From assembly GCA_013239625.1 (NCBI GenBank), contig MU053561.1, forward strand, positions 4,341,992-4,405,991: a DNA stretch of 64,000 nt. Reading direction: 5' to 3'. The position numbers and the translations under genes were made by a program. Below, piece after piece: positions 1 through 41,135 of this stretch (position 1 is its first letter; each line of letters opens with the position of its first letter). The notes beneath the pieces were generated by a model. It was not told the DNA's origin, searched no databases, and saw only the letters and a program-made list of their open reading frames with translations. This DNA comes from Lama guanicoe. Lineage: Eukaryota.

Positions 1-1426
1 ACACAAATACATATTTATGTTTTGTAAATTTATATAAAACATAAATATGTGTATTATGGTATTATTTGTTATAAAACATGTATAAAGCATAAAAATAAAT
101 AGAAATAAAAGTTCTAATATTTCTTTCTCTTATCCTAAACAAAATTCTTGCTCACTCCCTAAATTTTGGAAATACTGCTCTAATGATTTTGTGTCCAAAC
201 TTTGTCCTACAATAGAGATTTCTCAAGGACATGATATTTCACTTCTTGTATGTTTTCACAGCACCTAAGATAATGCTAAGAAACACACACAGAACTATTC
301 CACAATTCTAGAATTCCTTATCCAAACTTCTCATTATATATTGCTCTACTAAGAGAAATATCACATTATGCATTTTATTTTTTTAATATGACAATAACAG
401 CTATTAATATTCAATGTCAGATTTATTGTTACAAATAAATATCCATTAAAGATATTTTAAGGACTGAAATTATTATTTAGTCTACAACATTCAATTGACC
501 AATTCTAAAGAACATAGATACATGCAGTGATTTAAAATAGTATGTTTTGCTCTAAAAGAAGACTTAAAAATTGGATGAAAAGTCCATTTACCATCACTCT
601 AATATAAAATAATACTAAAAAATTATTTACAATTGGTTAAAACAGTTTTGGGTGTTCAAAAGTTAGTCTAGTCTATAGTGGAAAATTAAGCATTGCAAAA
701 GGAAAACAGTGTTTCAAAGTTCAACCAATTATCCAAATAAAGCACTATTACTGATAATTATTTTAATCAGATAAGTATTCAAAGCTAATAATAAAGATTA
801 CAGAAAATTATAGAGATTTTTAGAAAAACACCTACCTATCTATGAATTATTTTAATTGATACAAATAATTATTTTCACCAAAATTGGAAAAAATGTTTTT
901 ATAGCTTTATAAATCTCCACATTTGTTGATATGAAGCTTTGTAAATATGAAGCATAGAATTATTAGAATTAGCTAACTAAATGGTCATAAACTCATAAGT
1001 CAATTGAACTTCTCTATTAGCCATGAAAGTTGAATATTAACAACACCATATGATAAAATAGGATCACATTTTCTTATAATAATTCATAGTCCAACATGAC
1101 TAATCAATGAAATTTCAAAATTCAATTAAAATATAGCAGACCTTTCCCACTAAGAATTATTAAGGCCTCTAAATTCTAAAATAAGAAAAAAAGGCTACAA
1201 AAACATCTCTTGGCTCCTTATACTTCTGGACACCTATGAACTGCGTTATGAAACTGGACAGTGTTTCTTAAGATTTAAATTTTCTATCTTCAAAAAATCA
1301 AATAAAAAGTTATCAAATAATCACTATTGGTAAACAACAGAGGAGAAAATATATTTTGTTCTGAAATAATGTTTATGGTTATATAATCAATATTGTCATA
1401 TATACATGTTATTCTCTAAATCTTAC

Positions 1427-1494
1427 CCAGTTCACTTGACTTCTTCTGAAGTTCCATGGTAAGTACTTTCAACTGATCTTCACTTTTTCCCAAT
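1427..1494 (-). CDS. SYCP1: SYCP1 exon 15
   Basis: aag|A TTG GGA AAA AGT GAA GAT CAG...GAA CTG G|gtaaga; [22 protein letters not shown]; 68 nt. Confidence 0.93.
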
Positions 1495-4400
1495 CTTGCA
1501 AAATAATTATATTAGTTCACAATGTAAAATATTCTTTTACTGAGAATTTAATCTAGTAACTAAAACTGATGCAATTTAGCAACAATATATCTTAGCACAG
1601 ACTCACTCATTCAATTATTACACATTTTTTACTACCTACTTTGTGCCAGATAGTGTAACATTTGAAAACAAGATATTACTATTATACATACATAGTTGTG
1701 TATCAATTGCATCTACATAAAACTTTAAAGCTTATTGTCATGATTTATCTCTTAGCTATTGATGATAATCAAATTAATGTTTCCTACAACTTTGAAAGAG
1801 ACTGAGTATATAACTACTATTATACTGAATTCTGCCTTAGGAATAATCTAAATATGAGAACTGTGCAATTCTCTTAACTACGCTGGCTTTCCATTTCCTC
1901 ACCTATAAAACTGAGATAATTGGAATAGATGACATTTAAGGTCACTTAGAAATTTTAAATTTGAAAATCACCTGGAAAGTCTAATCAAAAATATATAAGA
2001 TTAGCTAGCAAGAAAATCTAGCCTTTCTTCCTTCACCATACACAAGCAGTAAAGAAGAAATTCTGCTAGGCTCAGGTCATGACTTCACAGAGAAGTTTTT
2101 TCCTCTCTTTCACCCTCTAGACTTAATTAACCCTTATACTAATGGGACAAAAATAATTACCTAGGCCTCATAACACAGCTTTATAAAAATAGTCCCTTAA
2201 TACAAAGTAGTGAAAAACAGAGTAAGTTTTTAACTCAAGTTTTAGAGAAACTATTCAGATGAAATGCAAATGAATACTTTATTTTATATATAGTTAAGCA
2301 TATTCATTAATCCATTGATTTAATAAAAATTTTTGAGTACCTACTCTGTACAAGGCTAGTTGCTAAATTTATAAGTCAGAAAGAAGGTTACAGACCTCAA
2401 TAAAATAAACCCACAGCCTAGGAAGTTATTTCTATTTAATAATCCACAGTTTAATTAAATACATCATATCACTGCATCAGCACTTATGAGCTTGTCTATA
2501 TTGCTGAACGCTATGAAAAGCATGCATGGGAATACCTGCTCTTTCCCTGGGATATCTACTTACCCAATACAAATTCTTAAAATGTGTTCCCAATTGATAC
2601 AATATAAAAAGAGACTTGGTTACAGTTATTATAGGAATTACAAGTCAGTTGACAATGAACAGAAAATGGCATTGAATATTAGAAGTAAATTGTTTTTATT
2701 CAGCTAAATAAGTATATTTACCTTTGCTGTTCTGTTGTTAATAATTCTTTCAAGTTGCAGATAGTAGTTTTAAGTTCAGTAACCACCAATGAATGGGCAG
2801 CTTTAGCATTATTAAATTCTTCCATTTGAGTTTCTTTTTCTCCAGTGAGCTGATATATTTTTTTTGTTGCTATTTGTAAATCCTCCTCTAAAGCCTTTTG
2901 AGTACTCTAAATGAAATACAGTACAAACAAAAGCTATGAAGTAAGGGCCTCAAGAAAAAGCTGAATTCATCTGCTTTCTGTAATTGACTGCCTTTCCCTC
3001 CCACTCTCCTTATCCTCTCACCCCCTCCTTTACCCTATCCTGGCTAATCTGGAATGTCCCATCCACTACTCTTACTTCAATTCACCATTCCTCCAAAGCA
3101 CACCTCCAAAGACTCCATGGAGTCTTCCTAACCAATCCATCCCATAGTGTTATTTCCATTTTTAAAACTATTGTAGAATTTTTGCCTGAATCACGTTGGT
3201 TCCCAGTATAGTTTTGTATTTTAATCATACTTTTGATATGTTTTTATCAAATGTCTCCAGTTAAACTCTAAGCATTTTGTAGACTGGAATTGTATCTTCT
3301 CTATTTGAAGCTTCACGTCCTTGTGCATAGTATTAGCATTCAATAAACATTTGTAGACTGATTGATGGGGTGAGAATTAGCACACACTAATCAGTTTTTA
3401 TATCATACCACACTTCTTTGCAAAGACATTTTAGTATCTTCTAGTACTGATGTCAAATGATCTTGCTTCTCATTTGATTCTTTTAAATTTTCATTCTGTA
3501 ATTCTAAAAGAGAAAGTTGTAGATAGGTAGTACTCAATAGAAAATACATACCAAGAAAACAAATTATTTGTAACAATTACTTTTTTCCTCTATTTAATAC
3601 TCCAAAATGAGGAAGAATTATGCAAATATAGATGCACTGTATTGGTCATCATCAACTTTTACTTTTTCAAGATTGCTATCATCCAAGCACTCAAAGATGA
3701 ATAGATAAGGACTTTCAGTGCTACATTTTTAGTAACAACTAAACAATGGAAACAACCTAAATATCCAACAGGAGATAAATTAAATTATGGTGATATATAC
3801 ATACAATGGTATGCCATATAGCCACTGTAAATGATGATATAGATATTTATTTATTTATTTATTTATTACTAATTTGGATATCATAAAATATCATAGAATA
3901 AAAAGGGCAAGTTAAAAACAATATTTATGTAAATAGTGCACATGAAAGGAAAGAACACACAAAAATTTCAAGAGTTATTCATCTCCTACTGGTGAAATTA
4001 TTCATGATTTATTTTCATTATTTCCTATCTTGATTTTTATATTTTTCTGAATTATTATATTACTTATTTAAATATTACCCAAAAAGCTACTGACTTCACT
4101 TGATAGCTAATATTTACTAAATTCTAAGTGCCAGATACTCGTCTATATGCTTTATATGTGTGCATTCACTTTTAAACCTCATAAAAACACTAAGGGAAAA
4201 AAGTTCATGCTCTTCGTTGGTTTAAATTATTCTATTTCCTTTTACTAGTTACCTAGACTCGGGTATGATACTTAACCAGTCTGTCTCTACTTTTCCCTCA
4301 TGGAAAATTATAGTTACTCATATCTTGAAGGGTTGCTGTTAGGATTAAACAAGATGATGCAATTTAAAATGTTTAACCACAGTGTCTAGCGTATAGTCAA

Positions 4401-13400: not shown

Positions 13401-16400
13401 TGCAGATCAATGAAACAGAATAGAGAGCCCAGAAATGAACCCACAGACCTAACAATCAATTAATCTTCAACAAAGGAGGCAAGAATATACAATGGAGAAG
13501 ACAGTCCTGTCAACAACTGGTAGTGAGAAAACTGGACAGCTGCGTGTAAATCAATGAAGTTAGAACACTCCTTCACACCATACACAAAAATATGTCAAAA
13601 TGGCTTAAATACTTAAATATAAGACAAGACACTATAAACTTCCTGGAAGAAAACATAGGCAAAACATTTTCTGACATAAATTTCAGCACTGTTCTCCTAG
13701 GTCAGTCTACTCAGGCAATAGAAATAAAAGCAAAAATGGACATTTGGGACCTAGTTAAACTTATAAGCTTTCACACAGTGAAGGAAACTATAAGCAAAAC
13801 AACCTATGAATGGGACAAAATATTTGCAAAAGATGAGACTGACAAAGGTTTAATTTCCAGAATATATAAATAGCTCATACAACTTAATAACAAAAAAAAA
13901 CCAAACAACCCAATCCAAAAATGGGCAGAAGATCTAAACAAGTAATTCTCCAATGAAGATATACAAAAGGCCAATAGGCACATGAAAAAATGCTCAATAT
14001 CACTAACTAAAAGAAATGTAAATCAAAACTACAATGAGGTATCACTTCACACCAGATGGAATAGCCATCATTCAAAAGTCCACATATGATAAATGCTGGA
14101 GAGGGTGTAGAGAAATGGGAACCCTCCTACACTGCTGGTGGGAATGCAGTTTTGTGTGGCTATTATGGAAAAACAGTGTCAAAATTCCTCAAAAAACTAA
14201 AAGCAGACTTACCATATAATCTAGCAATTCCACTTCTGGGTATATATCCAGAGGGAAGTCTAATTTTAAAAGATACATGCACCCCAACGTTTATAACAGC
14301 ACTATATACAATAGCCATGACATGGAAACAACCTAAAAGCCCACAGACAGATGACTGGATAAATAAGCTATGGTATATTTAACAATGGAATACTACTCAG
14401 CCATAAAAAAGAATAAAATAATGCCATTTGCAGCAACATGGATGACCCTGGAGATCATCATTCTAAGTGAAGTAAGCCAGAAAGAGAAAGAAAAAAATCA
14501 CATGATATCACTCATATGTGGAATCTAAAAAAAAGAAAAAAGACACTAATGAACTTATCTACAAAACAGAAATAGACTCATAGACATAGTAAACAATTTT
14601 ATGGTTACCAGGGGAAAGGGGCTGAAAGGGATAAATTGAGAGCTTGACATTTGCAAATACTAACTAGCATGTATAAAATAAACAAGTTTCTTCTTTATAG
14701 CACAGGGAACTGTATTCAATATCTTATAGTATCCTATCATGAAAAAGAATATGAAAACAAATATATGTATGTATATGTATGACTGAAACATTATGCTGTA
14801 CACCAGAAATTGACACATTGTAAACTTATTATACTTCAATTTTTAAAAAATTACTGGGCACAGCAAAAGATAAAGACAAATCACTAAAAAATACAATTAA
14901 AAAGAAATAGAGGGGGTAGGGTATAGCTCAAGGGGTAGAATGCATGCTCATATGCACAGGGTCCTGGGTTTAATCCCCAGTACTGCCTCCAAAAATAAAT
15001 AAATAAAGGTAATTACCACCCCTTCCAAAGAAAAAAAAAACCTATGTAAATAAAGTCACCCAGAAAATGTAAAGAAAAAAATATTTTAAAAAAGAGAAAT
15101 AGAAGGTAGAATGGTGGTTATCAGGCGCTGGAGGGAAGAGGGAATGGGGAGTTACTGCTTAATGGATACAGAGTTTCAGTTTTGCAAGATGAAGAGTTCT
15201 TGAGAAATATACTGGTGATGACTGCATAACAGTGCGACTCTATCTATGCCATTGAACTGTACACTTAAAGCAATTAAGATGGTAAATTTTATGTTATGTA
15301 TACTTTATCATAGTTTTAAAAAAACAGAAACAGACCAACAGGTGAGCCAGATATTGATGTAAAAAGAAAGTAGCTATAAAATATTAATTATTAATATATT
15401 CAAAAGGATGAGATGTCATTTTTAAAAGAGGAGAATTTAACCAGAGAAGTGGAATCTTAAGAAAAAGAATAAAACAAATTTAGAAGGAAAAAAATATGAT
15501 TAAAGTGCAGAATTCAGTAGATGGGTTTAAAAACAAATTTATAGACACAGCAGAAGGCAGGGTTAGGTAACAGGTCAATAGAAGATCTCTAAGTCGAAAC
15601 AAAGAGAAAAACAAAATACATACACATGGGAAACAATGAAAAGTAACTTAAATGAATAAATTTCAGTGCTTATGAATCTGCAGAATCACACAGTACTAGT
15701 TATTTATCACCAAAAAGTTGTTTCCAGTTTATATGATAAGACCAAATATTCATTCTTCCCAATACCTATTGAATTCCTATTATACATACATAGCAATATG
15801 CTGGGCACTCGAGTTAAAAAGATACTTAGTGAGACACAGTGCCTGCCCTCAAGATACTCATAGGAGACACACAAGTAATGCTTAAGCCACTCTAAATAAC
15901 AAGGAGCTCCCTGGGCATATATCCAGAAGGAATTCTACTTCAAAAAGACACCTGCACCCCAATGTTCATAGCAGCACTATCTACAATAGCCAAGACATGG
16001 AAACAGCCTAAATGTCCATCAACAGATGACTGGATAAAGAAGATGTGGTGTATTTATACAATGGAATGCTATTCAGCCATAAAAACCAACAGCATGATGC
16101 CATTTGCTGCAACATGGATGTCCCTGGAGAGTGTCATTCTAGGTAGGGTGATCCAGGAGGAGAGAGAGGGATACCGTGTGAGATCGTTCATACGTGGAAT
16201 CTTAAAAAAAAAAAAAAGGAGCATGGATATGGAACAGAGACAGACTCATGGATGTGGAGTGCAGGCTTCTGGTTGCCAGGGGGGAGGGGGCTGGGAGGGG
16301 ATAGACTGGGAGTTCAAGGTTTGTAGATACTGACAGGCATATGCAGAATAGATAAACAAGATTATACTGTATAGCACAGGGAAATATATACAAGATCTTG

Positions 16401-19400
16401 TGGTAGTTCACAGCAAAAAAAAATGTGACAATGAATATATGTATGTTCATGTGTAACTGAAAAATCGTGCTCTACACTGGAATTTAACACAACATTGTAA
16501 AATGACTGTAACTCAATAAAAAAAAGGTTTAAATAAGTAAATAATCAGGAGCTCACTAGAATTTCGCCAACAGATTTAGAGACAAGGCAGGAGGTTCATT
16601 TTGGGTAGCGAAAGTAGCCAAAATCATGATGGTGAGATAGTAAGAACATAAAATGTAAGGGAACTTGAAACAATTTTAACATATCTGGAGTATAAGATAC
16701 AGTGATGACAGTAAGGTGAAATGAGCAGGCATAGATTAGCTGGAATTAGATAATTATTTGCCAAATAAAGAAGAGAAAATGTTTTTAAGAGAAAAGGGAA
16801 AAAAATGCCACAAGATTTCTATGATGTTTTGAAAGGGGCACAGTATTTTACAAAGTGTATTATGCATTTCAAGTGCCTTACCACTCGAACAAGTTTGAAA
16901 AATATTCAATAATAAGATAGTCTAAACATAACATGACACTAAAGATCCTTCATAATCTGATGCAAACATTTTTTTCCAGTCTCATCTGAGTTCTTGAAGA
17001 TAGACAATATAGAAACCAGTGTTTCAAATATACTCTTTCACACTCCAATGACTTGCATAAACCATTTTTTTCTGCCTATACTCTCTCCTCCAATTCACTG
17101 TCTTGTGAATCTTTAATCATCCAAGGTCTAGTTCAATAAAAAATTTTCCCTTAATGCCTTTCCAAATGCCTTTCCCCAAGAATAATTAATAATTCCCTCC
17201 ATAATGCTCCCTAAGTATTCATTTATTTATAAAATATATGAGTGCCTAATATATGCCAGGCACTGTTCTAGGCACTTGAAATGTATCACTGAACAAAGAC
17301 AGACAAAGATCCCTGTTTTCATGGAGCACCTTATTGAAACTCTGAAGAAGGTGAGAATATGGAAAGGGAAAAGAGGAGCATGTATACTTTGAAAAAGCTT
17401 CCTAAGTGACTCTATAATGCCCTCCTCCAACTGGCCCAATCCAGGTTGAGAATTATGGCATTAGAAAGCATTACAACAAAATTGTAATGAAAACTAAATT
17501 TAAAACATAATAAGAGGAATACATAAGACATAGTTATATTTTATTATATAAATCCTTACTTGTCTTTTCCTCTAATTGATTAACTTTATCTCTGGACTCC
17601 TCTAGCAGAAATGTTAAATCTTTCATTTTGTTTTCTTTCTCAGTACTCTGGACCAATAGCAGTGATACCTAAAGTGAAAATTTAAATAATACATTATAGA
17701 CATGAAAATTAAATAAGACACCTTAGCATTTATCACTATCTATGACTATTTTATGTACTTTTTTATATGCTTTTTAGTTGGCTATGCCTGGCATTTAGTA
17801 TGTGCCTGCACAATAAACATTTATTGAATAAAGGAATGAACAAACTAATGCAATATATCCAATATTACAGTATGCATTTTAAGTTATCACTTACAAGATT
17901 ATATATTGAAACCTACTGGTTCATTTGTTCTATAAATATTATTGAGCACCTATTCTGTTCCAAAAACCATAATAAGCATTGAATATACAAAGATGATGGA
18001 ACTTACCTTCAATAAAGTCATAGCCTAGACCAAGAGTCAAACAACTATACTTGAATATTGTCAGTAGCAGAAAAAAAAATATTATAGGAATCAGGAAAAA
18101 AACAACTAAATCAGTCTTAGGGGATGTAATAAAAAAACTAACCCTTCCCAGAACCCTACTTCAGGATGACACCTGCACACCAATGTTCATAGCAGCACTA
18201 TTTACAATAGCCAAGACGTGGAAACAGCCTAAATGTCTATCAACAGATGACTGGATAAAGAAGATGTGGTATATTTATACAATGGAATACTACTCAGCGA
18301 TAAAAGCCGACAACATAACACCATTTGCAGCAACACAGATGTTCCTGGAGAATGTCATTCTAAGCAAAGTAAGCCAGAAAGAGAAAGAGAAATACCATAT
18401 GAGATCACTCATATGTGGAATCTATAAAACAAAAAAAAAGCATAAATACAAAACAGAAATAGACTCATAGACATAGAACACAAACTGGTAGTTGCCAAGG
18501 GGGCGGGGGTGGGAAGGGATAGACTGGGATTTCAAAATTGTAGAATAGATAAACAAAATTATACTGTATAGCACAGGGAAATATATACAAGATCTTATCG
18601 TAGCTCACAGAGATAAAAATGTGACAATGAATATATATATGTTCATGTATAAGTGAAAAATTGTGCTCTACACTGGAATTTGACACAGCATTGTAAAATG
18701 ATTACAAATCAATAAAAAATGTTAAAAAAAAAAAAACTAACCCTTTCCAGAGAAAGAAGTGAATTGAGTCTTGATAGACAAGTACACATTAATCGGGCTC
18801 ACAGAGAAAAATGAGCATTCTAGATTCTTACAAGAACACAAAGGATTAAGAGATCGGGCTTTATTCAAAGAGCTGAAAACATTCAGATGGCTAGAATATA
18901 GAGTGCATGTAAAGAATACATGAAACATAAACTTGTAAACATAAACGAAGACTTGCAGATTCAAGATGGCAGAAAGACCTCTCCACCCTATTTTCAACTT
19001 CAAATCACACAAAAAATAACTAAGAAAACACCAAAGACTTCATCTTCCACTAAACCATGAGACTTCTGTAATCCAAACCGTAACACGTGAAAAAGGAAAA
19101 CAGAAGAAACAGAAAATGATTTAACATAAAAAAGCAAGGTCAAAACTAAAGAGTCTACACAGGGATGATTACAAATGAAAGGAAGATAAATCAATCCCAA
19201 AGAAACTCAATGTTTGAAGAATTAGAAGCAACAGATGCTGTGGAAAACAGGTATGAAACAGAAGACTAAGTACAAGGAAAATGTCTGGAAGTCTGCAAAG
19301 AGTAGTAAGATTTCCCTAGGTCCTCTTACCCTCCTTTCCTGGACTCTACTCCCTGAAAGCCAACGTAGTCAGAACTAACCTACTCTATCTTTGTAAGAGA

Positions 19401-21932
19401 CAGTAGTATGGTAAAATTGAAAAAAAGAATCTCTAAACCTGGGTATTTCAGACACAGGAAGGGGTGGGGACAAAGAATATTAATTGAGATGTCAGCATAT
19501 GGAATGTTGAGACTCAGCCTGTCTTTCCTATCCTGTCAATCCAGCTCCAAAATGCCATCAACAAAGTTTACATTCCCAGGCAGGAATCTGGAGAACTCCA
19601 GAAAAAAAAAAAAAAGTCTTATAAATAATGACATTTAGGAGTCTCCAGCAAAACACTAGATGGCCACACCATCACTTTACAGGGAACTCTCAAAATCTAT
19701 AAGCTCTGCTCATGTACCCAAATCTCCAACAAGCTTTTAGCATTTTATTCTTTTTTTGTGTTCTCTATACTAAGTACAATTTTAACTTTTAAAAAGACCT
19801 CCTTCTTTCAGAAATCTGGTTTAAAAATACAGTTAAAATACAGGAAAAAATAACTCAAAATATCTGAGTATAATACATAAAGTAGAATTCTATCATTTAA
19901 CCAGAACTTTAAGAAAACTTTAAGAATCTTCTCTGCACTTTCAATTAACATGTCATTATTGTTTAAGTAGATTTTCTTGTTATCTATAATTACGAGGTAT
20001 CAGTGGCAAGTCAAATAAAAACTCTGAAAAAGTAGGGGGAAATAGAGAAAAGAGGATTCCTTTCTATATTTTGCTTTCCATTTTGGATTCAGAAGGCTTG
20101 AAACTGATAAAGTTGGCATAATAGTCATATGAAATCAATATTCTTGCGAATGTAAAAAAAACAGACACATCATTTTCAAGTCTCCCACAAGCAAAAGAAT
20201 GTTTTAGTTCCTCTTCATTGGTGTCATGAATCATGTATTTCAAAATTAACTACAAAACGTGGGTTGAGTGGTTAATGATCATTATCTTTACATTTTATGA
20301 GGTTTTTATGTGAACAAAAGTTCTCACAAAATATTTTTGCAGCAATGTCCTAATACCTAATACCCTAATATAAATATTGTAGAAGATGTACTAATTTTTA
20401 AAAAAGTCTAGCATTCAGTATGTGCATATTTGAGTCAACGGAAATTAAGGCAAATAGAAAATATATTTGGATATGTATAATATCAAAATTCTCTCATAGA
20501 AATTTATAATGCAGGCAGCAAATACAAATTGCTCTTGAAATTTTAAGTATCTTATGATTTAGCAACTATAAAGAATACAGAGAATTGATATTTTAAAAAT
20601 ACCTGCTTTTCCTTGTCATTTACTTCCTTCTTGTATTCTTCTTCAAGGTGTTGGATTTTTTCATAATCTTCCTTTACTTTAAAAATAAAACAAATATACT
20701 TAAATATCTTAACGTAATCGTATAACAGACAAAATTTTGAGTTTCTTTTATTTTACTTCACCTCCTTATTTATCTAGATACTAAACCCCAAAGGTTTCTA
20801 AGAAGCTAAAACCGCTGTTTCTGTGCTGCTAACTTTCTGTTTAGTAAAATAATGAATTTAAATAATATCAAAGTTACAGTAACTTACAAAAATTCTGTAA
20901 TTCTTATAACAGCACATATATAAAAGCTTATTCTTTATAACACACTAATATGAAATAACAGATTTTAAACATATATACATAATTATTTTAACATGCAACT
21001 TGACCAAGAAGTGTAAAAATAAGACCAAATCACACTTATGAAATCTTAAATACAAACCATAATTTGATTTCAGGGAAAATGTAGCTTTTGAAGCCAAAAG
21101 GGTATTTTTAACATATATCAGTTCCCTGCCATAATCCACAAGATTTCTGAGGGGCCTACAAAACCATATAGAATACAAAAATTTTTAATAATTTAGGCAT
21201 CAAGCTGAAAGTATGAAAACATTGACAGAATCTAATAAAAATATAAATAGCAGAAGAGTAATATAAAAACTAAGGATCCCTACACTTAAAATGCACGTCC
21301 AGTCTGGAGTTCTCAGCTTGCACACGAAGTTCCTCAAAAGCTATTATCATTTTCTAAAATATAAAGTTTAACTTTTAAGAATTATACTCAGACTTTTTTT
21401 TTCTTTAAACAACAGAAATAATAAATTTGTATCATGTGATCATTAGATTTAAAACTACACAACTTTGAATAATGAAAACCCTATACTTTTTAATAATTAA
21501 ATAATTTACTAAAGTGTATTAACAGTGCCTAATATAGTAGCTTCTTAGATGTTTAAAGGCACTGGAAACACATTATATAATAGCAAACAGCAGCAAAACA
21601 ATTGTTCATAATCTAGTCATCTACTTAATAGCCCATATCAAAATCTGTAATTTTATATTGATTTTTGCTTACTTATTTCTGTCTTCACTAAAGTATAACC
21701 TCAGTGAGATCTCTCCCCATAAGAATCCAAATTATACTTCCATGACCTGGCAGCATGAGTTCATTCAACATTCAACAAATCCTGATTTGTAAAATTGGAT
21801 GAATTCATTTATTCATTTAATAAATAGTTGTTTAGTGTCTATTATGTGATAGGCACTGTTTTCGGCACTTAGGACATAAGACAAAGGCCTTATCATACTA
21901 GAACTAACTTATGTTACAGTGTAAGAAAGAAT

Positions 21933-27900: not shown

Positions 27901-30900
27901 AAGCGAAGAAGTGACTCATGTGGAGGTGAGTTTCCTGTTTGTTCAGTTCTTTCCTACCATCTCTCCTAGCATTATTAAAGTGTAAGGAAGGCCCCAGCAG
28001 AACTGTAACAGGAAGTATGAGCAGTCAAAGGAAATCTTGTTTTTTTTTTTTTTTTTTTTCTCTTCCAGCCCTTCCCCAAGGGTGGCCCCTGTAGTGGAGC
28101 TACAGCAGTCACAGCAGCAAGGACAAAAAAAAAAGGCAAGAGAAACTCCATGTTTCCAGCCAAAGGACAGGGGGATGGAACACCTGTAAGGCTGAGAATG
28201 AGGGGGAGATCCTAGAGAGAACTGGAGGTGATTCTCTAATTGTTTGTATGAATTGGCTTAAGTCCCATAGGGAAAAAGGAAGATGTGCATGTATAAGACA
28301 GATCAAGGCAAATATAGCAAAAGCTCTGAAATCACTATCCAAGTCTCAGAACTAATCTTTAGTGGAGAATACATGACATAGACCCAGAGTAGCATGGCAA
28401 AAGCTTTGAAAACTGAACTGATAATGGGACCCCAGGTAAGGTAAGACAGAACTTGTGGTATGAACTTGAATTGACTATCTGCTAAAATATAAACAAACAA
28501 GCAAACATTCCCCAGGGGACTTTAACAGGACACAGAATCTCACAGCATAATATTCAAAGTGTCCAGGATATAATCCAAAATTTTTCAACATTCAAAGAAC
28601 TAGGAAACTGTGATATCATTCTAAGTCTCAACCAAACAATCAAAGATAATGAAGTGCACAATAAAATAACCAACAAAAACTAGAATCTACAAAACAACAA
28701 ACCATAGAAATAGACTCCAAGGGATTCCAGATATTTGCACTGCTGGACAAAAGATTTAACAAACTAAGTTTAGTATGCTCATGGAGACAAAAAGTCAAGA
28801 TTAAAATTTTCTGCAAGAACTTGAAACTCTAAAAAGTGACACTCAGTTATTTTTAAAAAAAAAAAAAAAGCTAATGTTTACAGAACTAGAGAATGCAATA
28901 GTAGAAAACTAAGACCTAACAGATGAATTTTAAAAGTTTAGAAAAGCTAAATAGAGAATTAGTGAACTGGAAGAAAGATTAGAAGAAATGATCCTGAAGG
29001 GAGCACAATGAGAAAAAAGGGTGAAAAATATGAAGAGGGTAAGAAATATGGAAGGTACAGCATAGTGACCTCATTGCTATGACTTGAAAACATTAAACAG
29101 GCTCTCATCTAAGGGATTTTGCATTTGCCATTTCCTCTGCCTGAAATATTAGTTCCCAAAATAGCTCCATGGTACACTCCCTCATTTATTCAGGTCTCTA
29201 ATCAAATACCATTTAATTAGAAAGAACTTCCCCAAACACCCTATCTAAAACATTCTCTTTTTAAGCAGTTATCATCACCCAACGTATATTCTATTTATTC
29301 ATTTATGGTATGTGTCCCTCTACTAGAATGTATACTCCGCAACAGCAGAAACTTTGTCTGTTTACTACTGTTTTTCCTCAGCATCTAGAACATTTCATGA
29401 CACACAGGAGGCACTTTTAAAAATGTTGAATGAATAAATAAAAGACAGAGAAAATCGCAATAGCAAAGATAAAGGCTTAAGGCAAGATTCTAGACAGAGT
29501 TTATACTAAGGCAAGCATTACGATTTTTTAGGAGAAAAAGAATCTACATGTCACATCAAGATACATTCTTTAGTTTATTTAAGAGATCACCTAAAAATGT
29601 TTAAAAGATTCTTCAAACCTTTCCCACAGTCTGATCTCTGACTTAGAGAGCTTAGAACTAAACAGAAGAAAGAACAGGTAGTCTTATTTCTCTAGCCCAG
29701 GTTACTTTCTCCAAGGTGGTCAATATACTATCTCTCTACCCTCTACCCATATACTTTTCACCACTCTATATCTAGGCAGAAAAGTTAACCTTGAAAGTTG
29801 AATAGAGATGGTATAGTGAAAAAGCTGGCAGTGGTGCAGTACATTCTGAAAGGTATAGTTACAAATGCAAAGTAATATAGGCAAGGACCAAGAATTTAAA
29901 AACCTAGTAATACTGCATGCTGGAAATAATAGTAGCTAACATTTATTGAGCACTTGGCACTGTTCTAAGCATTATATATTTATTAACCAATTTAATTCTC
30001 AAAACAACACTAAGAGGCACTTTATTAACTAATAATCAGATGGACAGATTACATAAATTATCCAAATTATTCAAGATCGAGCAGACAGAAACTGAAAGTT
30101 TGAATTTGAGCACAGGGCTATATAACTTCAGCTCAAGCATTAAGCCGTAAGCTGTTTCATATATATACCACAAAATTAATACAATGTTTTAAAAAAAAAG
30201 TTTCTTTAGGAGAAATTTGAGAACTCTATAAATAACTACATTGCTATTCTTAAGTAACATGCTTCCAGCATAGCCCTCCATCAGCATTTTCTATTATGAA
30301 CATGGTTATATATTATTCTTCATTCAATTTCCTAGCTGTTCCAGACAGAAGAGAAGGTTAGTTTCAAGAGCACACTTTAACTGAAATGAGAATTAACCAT
30401 AAATGCCAAGTATATAGCTTCAGAAATATATTATCTTTCAAAAAGCTTTGAGCTTTGAAAGCTCAAAGAACCAAGAATCTACTTAATACTTATACAAAGA
30501 AATGGTATGAGGCACATATACGTTGCTCCAATCAAAATTGGTTCCAAAAAGTGAAAAGATAATTTGTTCGCCTCTCCATCCACCACCAATTAAAATGTAA
30601 CAACAAATTGATAAAAATCACATAAAACAAGAAAGATATTTACATTTCTTTGTCTTTTCTGCAGATCTGGCACAGGTTTCTTTTAGCAGATTACATAAAT
30701 GTCTTGTAGCATTATTCCTGAAACAAAGGAAGGAGTTTGCATAAGTGTAATCTGACTTCCAAGCAAAAGTATATATAAAAGTTATGAAATATTACTTTTA
30801 CAATCTTAAAGAAAATCTTAAAACCTTATAATATTTTGTAAATATCAAATATCGTTCACAAGTGACTATATGAAAGAAAAATGAGTTGACTGTACTGTTA

Positions 30901-33639: not shown

Positions 33640-36600
33640 ACCAACCAACCAACCAACCAACCTAATCACCTTCCCCCTAAAAAGTTCTGGGTATTTATCC
33701 GAAGGACACAAAAGCACTAACTTGAAAAGATATATGCGTCTCCATGTTCAATGCAGTATTATTTACAGCAGCCAAGACGTGGAAGTTACCTAAGTGACCA
33801 CTGATGAATAAATGGATAAAGAAAATGTGGAATATATATACAATGGAATATTATTCAGCCATAAAAATGGAGGAAATCCTGACTTTTACAACATTATGGA
33901 GAGAACTTGAGGGCATTATGCTATGTGAAATACTTTAGACAGAGAAAGACAAATACCATATGGCCTCATTTATATGTGAAATCTTTTTTAAAAATTTAAA
34001 AAGAAACTCATGCAGATAACAGATTGATGGCTGCCAAAGGTGGGGGTAGGAAGGAAGAAAAATGAATGAAGGGGGTCAAAAGTTATAGCCTTACAGTTAT
34101 AAAATAGGTCCTGAGGATGTAGTGTATAGCATGATGAAGACAGTTAATAACACTGTATATTTGAAAGTTCCTAAGAGAGCAGAACTTGAGGGTTTTCATC
34201 ACAAGAAAAAAAATTTGTAACTATATGTTGTAATGGATGGATTTATTGTGGTGATCATTTTGCAATATATACAAATATCAATCATTATCTAGTACACTTG
34301 AAAATAATATAACGTCATATGTCAACTGATCTCAACCAAAAAAAAATTTTTTTAAAGATCAATATAATGCAGTCAGATCTTCCAAATCTTATTAAATGTT
34401 ACTGAAAGTTAAAAAAAAAAAGACCTCTGGGTGTCTTGAAGTTATTGACATATACAGCAGTTAGGTTTAATTTTCTAACCTATAATTTTTCTGCAGAAAT
34501 GAATTATTACAGATTAATAATTTATAATAATTTATTAGCTCAGTGAAAGGCAAAAGATGGAATATTACATAAACTATATCCTTTAACATTTTCAATAACC
34601 TAATAAATGAAAAATTTAAGAAGTCACTGGCCTTTGATTTCAGTCAAAGGTGGTTTGGTTTTGTTTCCAAAGCCTGTGACTATTCTCTAGCACAGACCAG
34701 TAGTTTCCAAAGTATGACCCTTGGGCCAGCAGCATCCACATCACTTGTTAGATGTGCAAATTCTTAAACCTACTCCACAGAATCAGAAACTCTGGTAGGG
34801 GAGGAAAGGCCAACAATATGTTTTAACAAGTTCTGCAGGTAATTCTGAGGCTTGCTAAAGTTTAAGAACCACTGTCTACAGAGAAAAATTTTTCTATTTT
34901 TACTGGTTTTGTAAAATCAAAACAAGTAACTATACACCTAATTCTTCAACTACAACTTGAAGAAACATCTTCAGCCTTTTCCTGTCAACTTAAGGTGAGA
35001 AGTAGAGGAGTGCCTTTGGCAATTTGTTCCCCAAACTACAATGACCCTTTGAGCAGCATAGCCTGGCATAAAACCAGCCATATACTCCATATACAAGCAA
35101 TCATTCAGTCAAACAATATTCCTTGCAAGTTCACTATATACTTAGTGGCCTAATATACTTTTCACTGACTCCAAAATAACCATCTGCAGTAACTTTCAAA
35201 CTTTTTTTAAGAAACAAAATCCTTTTTCAAAATGAAATCTTAACTGATTTTAAATCATACAAATCACAAGATTTAAAATCATATAAAAATAAAGCTGTTC
35301 TTGTTAAAGTAAGGAGAGAAAAGGAACTACACCTGTCACCACTCAGCCTATTCTTCAGCCCACCTTTCTGTAATGCATACCCTCCTCCTCTACTTCAAGA
35401 TAAAGTCAAAACTCCTCAGTATGGCATGAAATACTAAAGTAGTAACCTCTAGTTCCCTTTTGGGATAACTCCTATTCATCCTTTATACATTGTCTTCTTC
35501 AGATAGCCTCTAACAACCACCACCATAGCATTTGTATGCATGGGGCAGGGCTTGGTAAGGTTTAACTCATCAAAGTATTTAAACAAATCCCAGATAAGAC
35601 TCTGACAAAAATCCAATGTTGTAATTTTTAAGGTAATTTCTGAAAATATGTAATTGTGATGCTTCAGGCTTGACTGCTGGAATTTGAAAATTTAAGACAC
35701 CACTGTTATATCTAATGGTGAAAATCAGATCATATATGAGATCTTGTTCCATTCAGAAAGAATAATGCCTCCAAAATTATCTAAATTACCTCAAAACTCT
35801 CTTCCTGCTCAAAAATGTCAATGAATCAAAGTGTCCATTCTCTCACAAACTTCTATTACAGGCCAAGCACAAGGTTTTGAAATACCCAGAGTCACCCAAA
35901 GTCTCTTTCAAGCTCAAGAAAGAAAACAAAAACAAAAAAACAAAAAACATGAAATTTTTTTAAAAATTAAAAGATTAAAAAAAAAAGAAATAATACTCTA
36001 AAACTACATCCCTTTCAGAAAGTCATGATCATGTAAATAATGGGCTGGTTGAACTACTTTATCTTAAATTTGTCATCCAATAATCAAATCACTCTATCTT
36101 AAGTACTACTTTTTTCTTACTTATATTCTGACAAAGCTCTTAACTAAATGTTAGGTTCTCTCAGATGATAACTGACGATTCAGTATTTGATGCCAAAACT
36201 GACACTCAACTGGATCAAGTGCTTAAAATAGAAAGATACCACTCCAAAAAATAAAGCCATTCCCTCCCACCTCAAAAAATGGCATAAATTCTATACTATA
36301 CTATGTATACTATACTATTCTACACTACACTGAATACTATATAACTAAACTAAGTAGTCACAGTATTTACAATGTTTATTAATGGAAGCAGCAGCCATTT
36401 TTAAGAAAACTCACAAGTTACCAAATACTGGTATTAGCTACAGTAGCCTTTAGATCTGTATTAAACTGTAGAAACTCAATCACATACCCATATAAAAATG
36501 ACAAGTACAAAAAAATACAGTAGGCACACAATGTTAGATCCTTCCTTTTCTATCTCCCTTCCCCCTAATAATTAAACCTCATTTAAGCAGGAAAAAAATT

Positions 36601-39600
36601 AAGGTATAACATTAAGATTTTTTTTTTCTGGGAAGTCATAGGTTGTCTTTCAACTGGGCTAAAACAATCCATTGTAATAGCATTTTTCAATTATTAGAAA
36701 CTTCACTGACAATGTGATAAGCCTTCTAGAACTGCGTTTAGCATGATGTTTAACTTAAAGCAAGTAGGAATAAACAAACTTGGCACTTTGTCTGGACTCA
36801 CACATCAGGTTCTAACTATTCAATATTCACCTGGCAAGCAAATTAAACAGTTATACTTTTCTACTAAATTCTGCATGATATCATCTGAACAAAGTGAGAA
36901 AAGTATAAAATAAGGCTTAGATATTGTTTGGACAAAGGAAAGGAAAAGTCAAAGATGATACTAAAGCTTAAAACCAAAGTTAATGGAAGAATAATTGGGC
37001 CACAGGCAAAAATAGAAATTTGAAAATGAGAATTAAATTGGAACTAAGTTGAACCCTATTCTGCATGTGCTGCACCTAAAACAATAGTCAAAAAGAAAAG
37101 CAGACAATATACATAGTTGTAGATATGGGATTATCAGGTACCTTTTTTAACACCAAGTAATGGCTTCCCCTGCCTGACATTTTAAAAAGTGAGAAGTTAT
37201 TAGTCAGTGACCATAGTTTGCCAAATGCAAGAATGTCAAATAGTTATGACTTCCTTTTTTCCACAACACCAAAACAGAATTCTATATATAAGTTAATATT
37301 ACAAGAGAAAGTGCTCATTAAATTTTTAGAAATTATTTTAATAAGTTTGGAATAAAAAATTCATAAAGAATAAATTCATTAAATTATTACTTACTCTTTT
37401 ATTAAATCTTTATTTTCTTGAATTCCTTCTTCTAATTTCAAACTTACTTTTTCATTTTCAAACTAATGTACAAGACAGAAGAAAAGTTCATAACATTTTG
37501 ATTAGCAAAATAAACATGAGTATAATCATTAAGCAGCATTTCTTTGTTAACATGCTACAATGATCTGTAAGTTATTTTCTTTGAATACAAAAAAGAACTT
37601 TTTTGTCACACTTATGAATGTCCTATAAGAACATACTTTCATCAATCTAAAATTAGGTTTGCTGAATTATCTCCGAAAAGTATCTAACAATATTTTAATG
37701 TAATAGTATCTTCCCTAAACATTTCTAAACATTTGAAATGATGTTTTATCTTTGTCCTAGCCCAATGTTGCATTTTCTCAAAGTTTTCCTTTCACTATGC
37801 CATAAAATTGAAGCTAAAGAGTTTCAAATTTAAAGTTTTATCTACAAATGTCATGTTCTAATATAATAAAAAGACATTAATATCAAATAAAACATAATCA
37901 GTAATAGGAAAATAACAAAAACTAAAAATTCTATAATTAGAATCATTAAATCAATCTTTATCAAAAGTAATTTATTATTTCCCTAATAATTTGCATTAAG
38001 TTTTGTGTAGCTTGTCATCTATGCTCATCCTAAAGTTGAAATGCAACTAATATCAATGAAACTTCAAAAAAGCACTATTCTTAAAATCCACATCACAGAA
38101 ACAAAATAAACTCAACTCATTCTGAAATAATATTCTAGTTTAAATAGTATTATAAGATTTACTATACTATATTTTCAATTTCAAATCTCATTATACCTGT
38201 AGTTCTTGAATGGCTTTCCGCTGTGCTTCAATTATCTTTCTGTTTTCCTGCAACTTATTTTCTTTCTGCTTCAGCTCAGATTCTACACTCACCTTCCACT
38301 TCTTGATCTTTTCAGCTTCCTTATACAATTTTGAATACAGTCTGCTCATTGGCTCTGAATTCTATTATAAAATAGTTTTCCAAAGATTATTAACTATTCA
38401 AAATTTTAGTATAACCAAACTACAGATGCCTATTGAAAATATACATGAGTGTCTTAACAGTTGAGACCAAATTTCTCTTCAGTTTATGCCCTAATAGCAT
38501 ATTGAAAGCTACATTAACTTTTTTAACTACTAAGGCAATATTAGCTACTTCATTAAGATTACTGGTCATTTGACTAAGCTATTCCTCGCTGAATAATATC
38601 AAATAACTTCCAAATGTACTTAAGCCAGAAGTCAGAAATATTTAAGTCAATGAGAGAAACCAGCTGGTTAAAAGCTAAATAAATCATTCTATATGAAATC
38701 TATAAATTTTAGCAATGGTCTTGAAACATTTGGGTTATACAAATAGCTTAAGGATTAACCAAAGGATATGAAGTTTAAAATACAATAACATGAAAAATAA
38801 TAGTGAACACAAGGTCTAACTTTCATTCAGCCTGAGGTTTTATTTGGATTTTATTTGGATATTATTCTGCATTATCCATTTCCACATTATAAGGTAAACG
38901 CCAAAGGTTTTTGGGTTTTTTTAATCACGCTATTGTCTGCTTGCTGATAGCTCTTTGTTATTAAAATATATGTAAGTTCCAAATATCTAAATTTGTGATA
39001 CCATAATCCCAGCAACAAACAGTAATAAAGCACTTAATCAGGCCATAGAATGTCTCTTTACTTTAAAGATATCTATGTGCCATAAGAATGATTTTTATAA
39101 CTAAAATCAAAAGTACAACATATCCTACAAGTTCCTTAGACAGTAAATCAGACAATCATACTTATTAATTCAAGAATTGTCCATAAAATACTGGCTTAAC
39201 TCTCAGCCTTTTCACATATTGTATTCATCTCCCCTTTTGTTACCTTGATTTTTATGATTTAAAATTAAATTGCCCCTTAAGAATGAATGCTTTATAACCC
39301 AGGAAAATACAGAGGCCTAGTATTTCAGCAACTTCCAAATAAAAACAAAGGGAAAAAAAGGTTTTAAAGAATATAATTTAAAACATTAACCAAATATTAA
39401 TACTTTTGAAACTTTAAAAGAAAGATAGTTACAAATAATAATAAATGATACTCTAATTACATGAAATTTAGTATGTGTGGGAAATCGTCTGACCTCAAAA
39501 TCAGAGTCTTTGAGTCCTTCCTGGTAGTGACAACTGTCAGAATTATCAACCTAAAAAAATGAATAAATTTTTCCTATAAGAAAATATTTCTGGTAAGAGT

Positions 39601-41135
39601 TTCCAAATAGTAGCAATTAAATACTGAAGACTAGTAATTCAACAACTAAAGACTTCTTTTTCTTTTTCAAGCAAGCAATGGAATATCTAAACAGATTCCA
39701 TCTATGTACACTATACTTAACTGACCTGTTCAAGCATGGGCAAAAAGTTAACTTTTTGTAAAGCAGGATCTGCAAGATAAAAGACAACTGGTATTAAATT
39801 TGCCAACATCTTATTTTTCATATTAAGTATTATATCTTGCTTTAATGTTAAGGCTATCAATATAACACCTGTTATATTTTCAATATCTAGCAATGTATAT
39901 TTTAAAAATGCTTCTATGTATGGTGATACAAGCTTTTCTAGTCTCCTACCTGAATCAATGTTTTCCCCAGTTTTGGAGAGATTAGTCATTGCAAATGGAA
40001 AACCAAAATCATCTTCAACACATTTGTTGAAACCCTAGAAACACAAAGAAGTTCTTAAGCATACTATCCCATACCACTCTAATAACTACCAGTGTAATAC
40101 GTAATTACATTTATAATATACATCTGCTTAAAGAAGTGACTATAATTATAAATCCTTTAATGCATATATTGTGTTAAAAATATCAAATGCTTTTGTTATG
40201 TAAATAAAGCAAAAATTTCTAATTTTCACTTGTAAGATAAAACTAAATAAAAATTACATGATACATGCCTTGTATATACTCAGGAATAATATTAGTAATT
40301 TTAATCAGTAGCATAGAATTTTAGTTTTCTTCAATTTCATTGTGATCGTTCCTTTGCTAGAACTGAGGATTATCTTCACTGAATAGCATTTTAATGTTAT
40401 ACTCTTTGCTACAGAGACATAAGAATTTTTTTACAGCATATAAAATTAAAATATTCATTGCTTCATCCCATCTCCAACATAAAGTTTCAAATGAGAAATT
40501 TAAATAAATTACTAGAAAAGGGCCTATTTCACCTGAGAAACTTGGTATAATTCCTCCCTTCCAATAAAAATCTACTATTTAAATGAATTTCCCTTTTTAT
40601 CCAGGAAGCTCAGTCAAATTTTAAGCTCAGTCACACTAATTCTTACCAGTATGTCAACATATTTGTCCAAATTTTCTTAATTTTCCTTGATCCTAATATT
40701 CTTCTAATTTGTATTTTACTTTTTCATTTTATATGCTTATAAGTTGCTTCAAATCATTTAAAGAAAGAGGGAGGATTAAAATAATCAGGTCCCAGTATGT
40801 ATGCAGAGTTCTAAAACAGCAGTGATTATATCTTTAAACGAATGATGCTTAAACACACTACGTACGCTCATTGTTCATTCACAGCAACGCTATACAAAAT
40901 TCTTGAGAAATCAGACTGTATTTAATGAAAGAAATATATATATATAATATAACCAGGAAGAAAGTTTACTTTGCCTCATTTACCTAAAGTTAAGAATAGG
41001 CAAATCAAGACTCATATGCAAATTTACCTTGAAGAAATTAGAATCTCCTCCCAAGGTCTGAGGTTTCACTGCAGATACTTGACTGCTACTTAATCTTGGT
41101 GGCACAAACAATGTAAAGGGCTTTTGCTTTTCCAT
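1427..41135 (-). CDS. SYCP1: Synaptonemal complex protein 1, partial spliced CDS (exons 2-15, about 420 codons; continues beyond the window start)
   Basis: Join of 41135-41028, 40034-39950, 39769-39726, 39550-39494, 38361-38197, 37462-37395, 30717-30644, 22646-22588, 21353-21284, 20676-20603, 17668-17560, 3503-3409, 2906-2722, 1494-1427 = 1261 nt. All introns are GT-AG, phases are consistent and there are no stops. Translation starts [26 protein letters not shown] and then becomes coiled-coil. Confidence 0.97.
2722..2906 (-). CDS. SYCP1: SYCP1 exon 14
   Basis: tag|[31 protein letters not shown]...LLTTEQQR|gtaaat; 185 nt. Confidence 0.95.
3409..3503 (-). CDS. SYCP1: SYCP1 exon 13
   Basis: tag|[31 protein letters not shown]|gtatga; 95 nt. 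Confidence 0.94.
4844..4900. repeat. 22-bp tandem repeat, about 2.6 copies
   Basis: AGGATTTATAYACAACTTGTTC repeated. Confidence 0.9.
5170..7030 (+). mobile_element. Old degraded L1 5'UTR/ORF1 fragments (boundaries approximate)
   Basis: A-rich ORF1-like sequence (gaagagagaattagtaaa, cagattcaagaagc, aaaatatcctttcc). Confidence 0.55.
7035..11010 (+). mobile_element. L1 5' half: 5'UTR, decayed ORF1 (about 8411-9290) and ORF2 endonuclease region (from 9739)
   Basis: Starts with the AAGATGGC motif. ORF2 N-terminus [26 protein letters not shown] and further EN fragments [29 protein letters not shown]. Multiple stops and frameshifts. Confidence 0.9.
9817..10097 (+). mobile_element. 5'-truncated younger L1 3'UTR nested in the older L1 ORF2
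   Basis: Perfect 15-bp TSD AAAAGACATAGGGTG at 9802-9816 and 10098-10112; A tail. Confidence 0.9.
11010..12900 (-). mobile_element. Mosaic of minus-strand L1 pieces (ORF2 fragments, a 5'UTR/ORF1 segment about 11670-12710, a 3' segment about 12715-12900)
   Basis: T-rich reverse L1 motifs (ttgctgagttt...cagatatgtgg; ctttatccattcatctattgatg) and a GC-richer reversed 5'UTR. Confidence 0.7.
13105..14850 (+). mobile_element. L1 ORF2 C-terminal part plus 3'UTR
   Basis: [41 protein letters not shown] motifs; 3'UTR and A tail. Confidence 0.92.
14912..15090 (+). mobile_element. tRNA-derived SINE, Vic-1-like (camelid)
   Basis: GGGGGTAGGGTATAGCTCA (A box)...GGTCCTGGGTTTAATCCCCAG (B box), (AAAT)n, C-rich tail; imperfect TSD AAAAGAAATAGA. 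Confidence 0.8.
15910..16538 (+). mobile_element. 5'-truncated young L1 3' end carrying an A-to-G hypermutated tract
   Basis: [23 protein letters not shown]2 end and 3'UTR; TSD AAATAACAAGGAGCTC (15894-15909) / AAATAATCAGGAGCTC (16539-16554). Confidence 0.92.
17560..17668 (-). CDS. SYCP1: SYCP1 exon 12
   Basis: tag|[36 protein letters not shown]|gtaagg; 109 nt. Confidence 0.95.
18150..18732 (+). mobile_element. 5'-truncated young L1 3' end (sister of 15910-16538)
   Basis: [21 protein letters not shown]; polyA; TSD AAAAAACTAACCCTTYCCAGA at about 18132-18152 and 18731-18751. Confidence 0.92.
20603..20676 (-). CDS. SYCP1: SYCP1 exon 11
   Basis: aag|[24 protein letters not shown]|gtattt; 74 nt. 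Confidence 0.94.
21284..21353 (-). CDS. SYCP1: SYCP1 exon 10
   Basis: tag|[23 protein letters not shown]|gtaggg; 70 nt. Confidence 0.94.
21932..21964. repeat. (TACA)n(CA)n compound microsatellite
   Basis: Seen directly. Confidence 0.85.
22588..22646 (-). CDS. SYCP1: SYCP1 exon 9
   Basis: tag|[19 protein letters not shown]|gtaagt; 59 nt. Confidence 0.95.
24095..24126. repeat. (CA)n microsatellite, interrupted
   Basis: Seen directly. Confidence 0.85.
25900..26810 (+). mobile_element. Ancient CR1/L3 LINE 3' fragment, interrupted by an L1
   Basis: gccatctttaaagatctaaag...gcttagactttttctgt...agagctgtcc...gtgaacttccatcactgaatatattcaaaca resembles the L3 3' end. Confidence 0.55.
26398..26728 (+). 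mobile_element. 5'-truncated L1 3'UTR insertion
   Basis: TSD AAGAGCTGYCCTYAAATGA at 26379-26397 and 26729-26747; same 3'UTR family as 9817-10097 and 14560-14850. Confidence 0.9.
27580..29060 (+). mobile_element. Old L1M 5'UTR/ORF1 fragments
   Basis: gacttccagt/ggactttgctttctgg starts; ORF1 coiled-coil-like gagaattagtgaactggaagaaag. Confidence 0.55.
30644..30717 (-). CDS. SYCP1: SYCP1 exon 8
   Basis: cag|[24 protein letters not shown]|gtaaat; 74 nt. Confidence 0.95.
31753..32604 (-). mobile_element. Solo LTR, MER21-like, inserted in the L1
   Basis: Interrupts L1 ORF2 between ...atattacc and ...agcaatctacagattc; the minus strand begins TGTAGTATTGTGATTTATAAG; internal tacctggagatagcatcagat. 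Confidence 0.7.
33526..33683 (+). mobile_element. Vic-1-like tRNA-derived SINE
   Basis: GGGGAGGGTATAGCTCAGTGGTAGA...GGTCCTGGGTTCAATCCCCAGTACCTCC followed by (AAAT)n(AACC)n. Confidence 0.85.
34698..34874. mobile_element. MER5A-like hAT MITE
   Basis: Termini CAGTAGTTTCCAAA ... TTTAAGAACCACTG; internal gaatcagaaactctgg. Confidence 0.75.
37395..37462 (-). CDS. SYCP1: SYCP1 exon 7
   Basis: tag|[22 protein letters not shown]|gtaagt; 68 nt. Confidence 0.95.
38197..38361 (-). CDS. SYCP1: SYCP1 exon 6
   Basis: tag|[55 protein letters not shown]|gtataa; 165 nt. Confidence 0.96.
39494..39550 (-). CDS. SYCP1: SYCP1 exon 5
   Basis: tag|[19 protein letters not shown]|gtcaga; 57 nt. Confidence 0.93.
39726..39769 (-). 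CDS. SYCP1: SYCP1 exon 4
   Basis: cag|[14 protein letters not shown]|gtcagt; 44 nt. Confidence 0.93.
39950..40034 (-). CDS. SYCP1: SYCP1 exon 3
   Basis: tag|[28 protein letters not shown]|gtagga; 85 nt. Confidence 0.93.
41028..41135 (-). CDS. SYCP1: SYCP1 exon 2 coding part (start codon); the exon probably begins at 41159 with 24 nt of 5' UTR
   Basis: ATG at 41135-41133; [36 protein letters not shown]|gtaaat; acceptor AG at 41161-41160. Confidence 0.96.

Follow-up and report, generated by a model that had tools for sequence, protein, structure and literature searches.

How could nearly a third of the adenines over 271 nt of a single retrotransposon copy have become guanines on one strand only? 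This question is raised by a 64,000-nt stretch of the guanaco (Lama guanicoe) genome (GenBank assembly GCA_013239625.1, contig MU053561.1, positions 4,341,992 to 4,405,991 of the forward strand; hereafter the window, numbered from its first nucleotide), in which an intron of the meiosis gene SYCP1 carries a truncated copy of long interspersed element 1 (LINE-1, L1) with a dense cluster of sense-strand A>G changes. The reading that we favour, with a probability of about 0.6, is that an L1 RNA was hyper-edited by the adenosine deaminase ADAR in a duplex of ~190–270 nt and that the edits were then fixed in DNA by target-primed reverse transcription (TPRT). The same origin had been proposed in a preliminary description of this DNA, made from the letters alone, and the strand of the changes, the private nature of the Gs and the bias in their 5' neighbours make it the best supported of the readings considered. 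The elements on which the comparison is based are as follows.

15910..16530, + strand (sense): copy A, the 5'-truncated 3' end of an L1, comprising the last part of open reading frame 2 (ORF2) and the 3' untranslated region (UTR), placed by alignment to other L1 3' ends.
16050..16320, + strand: the A>G tract within copy A, with 35 of 116 ancestral A changed relative to the majority of 30 copies.
About 16131..16319, + strand: the dense core of the tract, with 31 of 84 ancestral A changed (37%).
18150..18732, + strand: copy B, a sister L1 3' end aligned with copy A and used as the unedited comparator.

Copy A (15900–16540), copy B (18140–18740) and an older copy C (14215–14850) were aligned with MAFFT. 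Within 16050–16320, copy A differs from copy B by 38 A>G, 2 G>A, 3 T>C and 8 C>T changes and by 9 transversions, while a count by hand in the preliminary description had given about 30 A>G sites and about 2 in the opposite direction. The derived state of the G, first argued from the older copy, is upheld by the use of copy C as the outgroup: the sites at which it agrees with copy B place 28 A>G changes on the lineage of copy A, and 2 were assigned to the lineage of copy B.

The ancestral state was then taken as the majority (at least 60%) of 30 other copies, consisting of 29 genomic loci and copy B. By this measure, A>G accounts for 35 of the 47 substitutions in the tract, the others being T>C (2/53), C>T (3/39), G>A (2/59) and five transversions, with two A>T and no A>C changes. 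The excess of A>G over T>C is significant (Fisher test, p = 4e-5), and the alternative outcome named in the preliminary description, an equal frequency of other weak-to-strong changes, is not what was found. In the L1 sequences flanking the tract, only 0/51 ancestral A at 15910–16049 and 2/88 at 16321–16530 were changed to G (tract versus flanks, p = 1e-11). Counted in bins of 40 nt, the A>G changes climb from 2/16 to 9/20 and 10/21 and fall to zero from about position 16350 on; the interval 16141–16190, for which twelve had been reported, contains exactly 12 A>G sites relative to the 30-copy majority. Altogether, the 35 changes in 271 nt affect 13% of all bases and 30% of the A bases of the tract. 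The statement that the copies are nearly identical upstream of 16050 is correct relative to the family majority (three differences in 139 sites) and fails relative to copy B itself, from which copy A differs there at 16 positions.

A cluster of this kind could have been inherited from a G-rich L1 subfamily or source element, or acquired by gene conversion from such a copy or by GC-biased gene conversion. The genome searched was the animal's own assembly, of 2.05 Gb in 55,231 contigs, and the best non-self match to the tract had 82% identity (40 scored of 5589 candidates). When the same calculation was applied in the tract columns to each of the 30 control copies, 0–8 A>G and 0–4 T>C changes were obtained per copy, these copies being the best matches to a G-rich query and hence biased towards sharing its Gs; copy B has 3 A>G, 4 T>C and 6 G>A changes of its own in these columns. 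G is missing from all 30 other copies at 16 of the 35 A>G sites and is present in no more than one of them at 25, so that a variant shared across a subfamily, the possibility left for checking by the preliminary description, does not explain the Gs. A few of the 35 are compatible with an inherited origin: G is found at 16050 in 10/30 copies, which makes this site probably an ordinary variant, and at three other sites in 4–5/30. GC-biased gene conversion was rejected as a source of the tract, since it is strand-symmetric and should have changed both strands, yet T>C amounts to 2/53 against 35/116 for A>G. An inherited or recombinational origin is therefore largely refuted and highly improbable.

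Among the 13 pairs of repeats (200 bp or longer) that self-comparison of the window yielded, four show a strong A/G asymmetry, and all four include copy A. Because the tabulation, the 30-copy control and the repeat-pair control agree, the A>G tract is real in the assembly, confined to copy A and far beyond chance.

The changed adenines are not a random sample of those available. The A>G rate depends on the 5' neighbour, being 9/19 after U and 21/51 after A, and only 3/21 after C and 2/22 after G; the depletion after G is significant (p = 0.019), as is the difference between A or U (W, 30/70) and G or C (S, 5/43) as the preceding base (p = 7e-4). The 5' bias that the preliminary description had suggested looking for as a mark of ADAR is thus present. 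The rate after C is probably an underestimate, because a CpG made by an edit can revert to CA as well as go to TG. By 3' neighbour, the rates are 8/19 before G, 15/50 before A, 5/17 before C and 7/27 before U. In clusters of hyper-edited RNA, G is depleted upstream of the edited site and enriched downstream, according to passages of one survey (PMC4365171), and an account of viral hyperediting, as far as its relevant section goes, gives an excess of A or U and a depletion of G at the 5' side (PMC8586724). The neighbour bias of copy A matches the ADAR motif of both on the 5' side, while the 3' preference has the right direction without significance.

An error-prone DNA polymerase could also leave such a pattern: pol iota, or pol eta at WA sites, might have placed G opposite T during second-strand synthesis of the TPRT intermediate or when the stretch was repaired later, the mispairs then escaping correction. 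Insertion of G opposite T by pol iota is described in part of one report (PMC3031609). Incorporation of G opposite T into the nascent sense strand would yield sense A>G, and the sharp edges of the tract could reflect a polymerase switch. Moreover, the preference for a preceding W (30/70 versus 5/43) is also the WA context of pol eta. However, the spectrum is nearly pure, with 35 A>G against two A>T and no A>C, and none of the other classes of substitution is elevated there. The error spectra and rates of the two enzymes fit poorly: in somatic hypermutation, A>T and A>C make up a large part of the errors of pol eta at A, its rate of placing G opposite T is a few percent rather than 30–37%, and pol iota would be expected to change the majority of the A bases and is too distributive for a stretch of 190–270 nt. 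We consider an origin in polymerase errors unlikely.

Several other processes were rejected on the direction of change alone. Editing by APOBEC3 should have produced a sense-strand G>A cluster, and G>A is seen at 2/59 sites. Spontaneous deamination of a displaced single strand should be dominated by C>T, which is found at 3/39 sites, two of them at edit-made CpGs. With SYCP1 on the minus strand, both transcription-associated asymmetry, in its usual direction, and editing of the pre-mRNA of this gene should show up on the + strand as T>C. Sense T>C is likewise the product expected if the cDNA strand had been edited while paired with the L1 RNA, and no such excess is seen.

The tract lies inside an element with the marks of L1 retrotransposition. 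Copy A aligns with all 30 of 30 other L1 3' ends, at 82–88% identity, from query position ~11 to 624–641, and its translated frame matches proteins named by their sources as camelid LINE-1 ORF2 (ORF2 C-terminal matches). A target-site duplication (TSD) and a remnant of the tail border it.

15893..15909, + strand: 5' copy of the TSD, 17 nt, the best direct repeat across the insertion, with 15/17 positions identical to 16538–16554.
16538..16554, + strand: 3' copy of the TSD, with 15/17 positions identical to 15893–15909.
16531..16537, + strand: degenerate A-rich remnant of the tail, 7 nt, read from the sequence, its boundary with the A-rich TSD being ambiguous.

The 5' truncation and the 17-nt TSD, which is A-rich at its 5' end, identify copy A as an ordinary TPRT insertion. 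The preliminary description had called both the TSD and the A tail intact; the TSD does exist, with two mismatches in 17 positions, while the tail is reduced to the 7-nt remnant. Through an A>T change at 16203, copy A has lost the stop that normally ends ORF2, and a frame of 145 codons between stops (15896–16333, + strand) extends into what was the 3' UTR. In an intronic, truncated copy this frame probably has no meaning.

The age of the Gs bears on whether they are DNA at all. Three ancestral CA dinucleotides were changed to CG by A>G, of which two are now TG and one is still CG.

16175..16176, + strand: intact CpG derived from ancestral CA, from the alignment against the majority.
16230..16231, + strand: TG where the family has CA; the C>T change is shared by 3/30 copies and the A>G change by 0/30.
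16253..16254, + strand: TG where the family has CA; the C>T change occurs in 1/30 copies and the A>G change in 1/30.

The CA>TG changes described earlier at 16230–16231 and 16253–16254 were both recovered relative to the majority. The C before an edited A is now T in two of the three cases, compared with 1/36 of the other C in the tract (p = 0.012). Since decay of CpG to TpG needs a methylated germline CpG over a long time, the Gs appear to be old germline DNA. If the A>G changes are set aside, 23 positions of copy A depart from the majority over 15910–16530, a number within the range of the younger control copies. About 15 of the 23 are private to copy A (~2.4%), which at the usual mammalian neutral rates would date the insertion to ~10–25 million years ago.

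An assembly or sequencing artefact, in which the Gs would not be in the animal's DNA, should be considered against this background. A protein search with the 145-aa frame, which returned 7641 matches at E<=1e-10 among 8000 scored, found no identical open reading frame, the best having 79% identity among the 120 matches listed, and an exact 50-mer of the tract had no match in metagenome contigs. Clustered systematic errors of Sanger traces are known, though of the G-to-A type in the portion of the survey that describes them (PMC2873906). On the other hand, such errors must have struck A alone, in an ADAR-like 5' context, in one repeat copy and with clean flanks, and the CpG decay at edit-made sites makes a base-calling or assembly artefact hard to reconcile with the data. 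Sequencing runs argue weakly in the same direction. In 20 runs with seven organism labels, 0.70–0.84 of the sampled words of 15700–16700 were present, shares that are not localisable to the tract. As 269 of the 971 31-mers of 15700–16700 (27.7%) hold a private G, a run that lacks every one of them should reach at most ~0.72, and the four best independent-looking runs (X2, X3, X4 and X15) reached 0.74–0.78. One run of a further organism label had 0.17 of the sampled words, from which nothing was concluded. We regard an artefact as very unlikely.

The host intron would allow for a different time of deamination. The window is mammalian, and its L1 ORF2 fragments are closest to proteins named by their sources as LINE-1 ORF2 of Camelus dromedarius. 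The SYCP1 family (PF05483) has 17 matches on the same contig, all on the minus strand, which bears out the strand assigned to this gene in the preliminary description. Copy A (15900–16540) is intronic, lying between the following exons and antisense to SYCP1.

17558..17671, - strand: SYCP1 exon (PF05483 positions 241–278; contig match C1182:4359549-4359662, E=1.8e-13), the gene-upstream boundary of the intron.
3397..3504, - strand: the next SYCP1 exon (PF05483 positions 278–313; contig match C1182:4345388-4345495, E=9.7e-7).

As all SYCP1 exons are on the minus strand, the + strand is the template of SYCP1 transcription, and ADAR might have deaminated deoxyadenosine on this strand within an R-loop in meiotic cells after the insertion, the resulting deoxyinosine being replicated as G. 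The strand, the type of change and the 5' bias would all be reproduced. However, purines prevail on the ancestral + strand of the tract (116 A and 59 G; 39 C and 53 T), so that the RNA paired with it would consist mostly of pyrimidines, and hybrids with pyrimidine-rich RNA are the least stable kind. To our knowledge, there is no germline precedent for ADAR editing of R-loop DNA. The tract is also wholly within one retroelement insert. According to parts of one study, the neighbour preferences of ADARs are unchanged when they deaminate deoxyadenosine in a DNA/RNA hybrid, a long matched hybrid is a substrate of full-length ADAR2, and deoxyinosine in DNA undergoes repair (PMC5389660). Deamination of the chromosome itself is quite unlikely on balance; if true, it would mean heritable ADAR-driven hypermutation of chromosomal DNA in the mammalian germline.

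Editing of the L1 RNA before its reverse transcription would account for the same features in the following way. A transcript of a then-active camelid L1 subfamily would have been double-stranded over ~190–270 nt, from late ORF2 into the first part of the 3' UTR; the likeliest partner is either an RNA with antisense L1 sequence or an inverted piece of L1 carried by the transcript itself. ADAR would have deaminated about one third of the sense-strand adenosines to inosine, hyper-editing of this kind being typical of ADAR1. During TPRT into the SYCP1 intron in the germline, the L1 reverse transcriptase would have paired inosine with C, so that the edits would be fixed as sense-strand A>G in a 5'-truncated insert with a TSD, and two of the three edit-made CpGs would later have decayed to TpG. 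The A>G cluster is strand-specific, private and contained within the insert; from this and from the TSD, the 5' bias and the CpG decay we infer that the enzyme was ADAR, that the RNA had a double-stranded partner and that editing preceded reverse transcription.

Several observations weigh against this scenario. No double-stranded RNA partner was found: folds of the last 640 nt of three unedited relatives contained no stems that could explain the tract, and the pair probability was 0.18–0.21 for edited A versus 0.26–0.29 for unedited A (p 0.22–0.37), so that the duplex partner must have come from outside this segment. The rate of change is highest before a 3' G, yet this preference is not significant (p = 0.28), and the 5' W bias is equally expected from a WA-type polymerase signature. 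In cell culture, no editing was detected with ADAR1 over more than 2.5 kb of L1 RNA or with ADAR2 over more than half of the L1, and the restriction of L1 did not depend on editing (PMC5224506; PMC8677026). The tract is known from one assembly, and the word shares of the runs argue for the Gs only weakly, through the highest of them alone. Finally, a 15-mer probe containing two of the Gs found six other places in the genome and no second hyperedited copy among them. It had seven matches including copy A, compared with three for the reversed control, and five of the six other places are L1 3' ends with 3–10 A>G and 3–7 G>A changes in the tract columns, the sixth (L035) having been dropped as without an L1 match.

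Two of these L1 copies, which also have the Gs of 16176 and 16178, show a mild A>G excess in the tract columns: L033 (~1123–1786, minus strand), with 10 A>G, 1 T>C and 6 G>A changes, and L036 (~1476–1857, plus strand), with 8 A>G, 0 T>C and 5 G>A; both signals are too weak to count as further cases.

Inverted L1 configurations are common, as inverted L1 3' fragments were present within 1.5 kb at 3 of the 30 sampled L1 loci (L002, L010 and L011). At L010, the inverted fragment directly abuts the L1 copy and has the look of a 5' inversion of the twin-priming type; co-transcribed pairs of this kind could form double-stranded RNA.

If ADAR editing of the L1 RNA is the origin of the tract, its closest counterparts are hyper-edited RNA clusters, the product of promiscuous A-to-I editing of long double-stranded RNA, mostly by ADAR1. 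Like the tract of copy A, they show A>G as the one mismatch type, on one strand, with 5' G depleted; the rate in copy A is also highest at 3' G, although not significantly. The density in copy A (13% of bases) is far above the 5% threshold for hyper-editing given in passages of Porath 2014 (PMC4365171). The two differ in that such clusters are seen in RNA against unchanged DNA, while in copy A the change is in germline DNA. Fixation of A>G hyperediting through reverse transcription has been described for Rous-associated virus 1 (RAV-1), avian leukosis virus (ALV) and the human and simian T-cell leukaemia viruses HTLV-2/STLV-3, and the sections concerned give the route proposed here, with inosine made by ADAR in the RNA template and then fixed as G when the RNA is reverse-transcribed (PMC8586724). 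These proviruses are exogenous, come from culture or infection and arise by cytoplasmic reverse transcription, in contrast to copy A, which is a non-LTR (long terminal repeat) element reverse-transcribed at a chromosomal target and inherited through the germline.

The fossils left by APOBEC3 in retroelements, as portrayed in parts of a 2010 survey (PMC2873906), resemble copy A in being the scar of a host deaminase active during retrotransposition, recognised because repeat copies differ by clustered mismatches of a single type. They differ in the base attacked: APOBEC3 acts on C of the minus-strand cDNA and gives sense G>A, whereas copy A has A>G at 35/116 sites and G>A at 2/59. Carmi, Church and Levanon reportedly described in 2011 G>A clusters of the APOBEC3 type in endogenous retroviruses and other retrotransposons. 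The 5' half of Mtv61, an endogenous mouse mammary tumour virus (MMTV), is, like copy A, a germline copy with an A>G excess for which ADAR has been considered (PMC12548423). There, however, the relevant part of the report lists 131 A>G versus 107 G>A and 70 C>T changes, in a context unlike that of ADAR according to its authors (PMC12548423). Compared with this modest excess, that of copy A is ~17-fold and has a fitting context.

A search of the full-text literature, outside which lay Carmi 2011, Knisbacher and Levanon 2015 and supplements, found no germline L1 with an ADAR-type A>G tract. Both ADAR1 and ADAR2 bind L1 ribonucleoproteins and restrict L1 (PMC5224506; PMC8677026). The part that ADAR editing plays in retroelement evolution was described as not yet determined in a passage of a 2016 review (PMC4982230), and the 2010 survey, in an excerpt on this point, expected the integration of edited retrotransposons to be rare (PMC2873906). 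Copy A is probably a case of a deaminase footprint fixed by reverse transcription, here that of ADAR on a germline LINE-1. If so, hyper-editing of L1 RNA does occur in cells from which the germline draws, a template heavily laden with inosine can still complete TPRT, and RNA editing can burden one retroelement copy with dozens of heritable substitutions in a single step. Genome surveys would moreover have a pattern to look for, namely clusters of sense-strand A>G with 5' G depleted between TSDs, by which the frequency of such events and the lineages in which they occurred could be measured.

Several minor features of the window were recorded as well. An old pair of L1 fragments (18183–18423 and 33744–33984, 70% identity) shows a mild asymmetry of one type, 17 T>C versus 4 C>T changes, with A>G (11) and G>A (12) balanced. 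Following the older copy C, at ~14905–15010 on the + strand, there is a short element that resembles, by eye alone, a tRNA-derived short interspersed element.

Exon-sized matches to PF05483 on the minus strand are located at 2718–2909, 3397–3504, 17558–17671, 20594–20686 and 21276–21374, and further ones at 30636–30731, 37391–37465, 38185–38364 and 39930–40046. Since PF05483 model positions 6–372 are matched across these exons, the window holds the 5' half of SYCP1. Just past the first SYCP1 exon match, at 42001–46000, the GC skew on the + strand is strongly positive (0.16 and 0.28 per 2-kb window).

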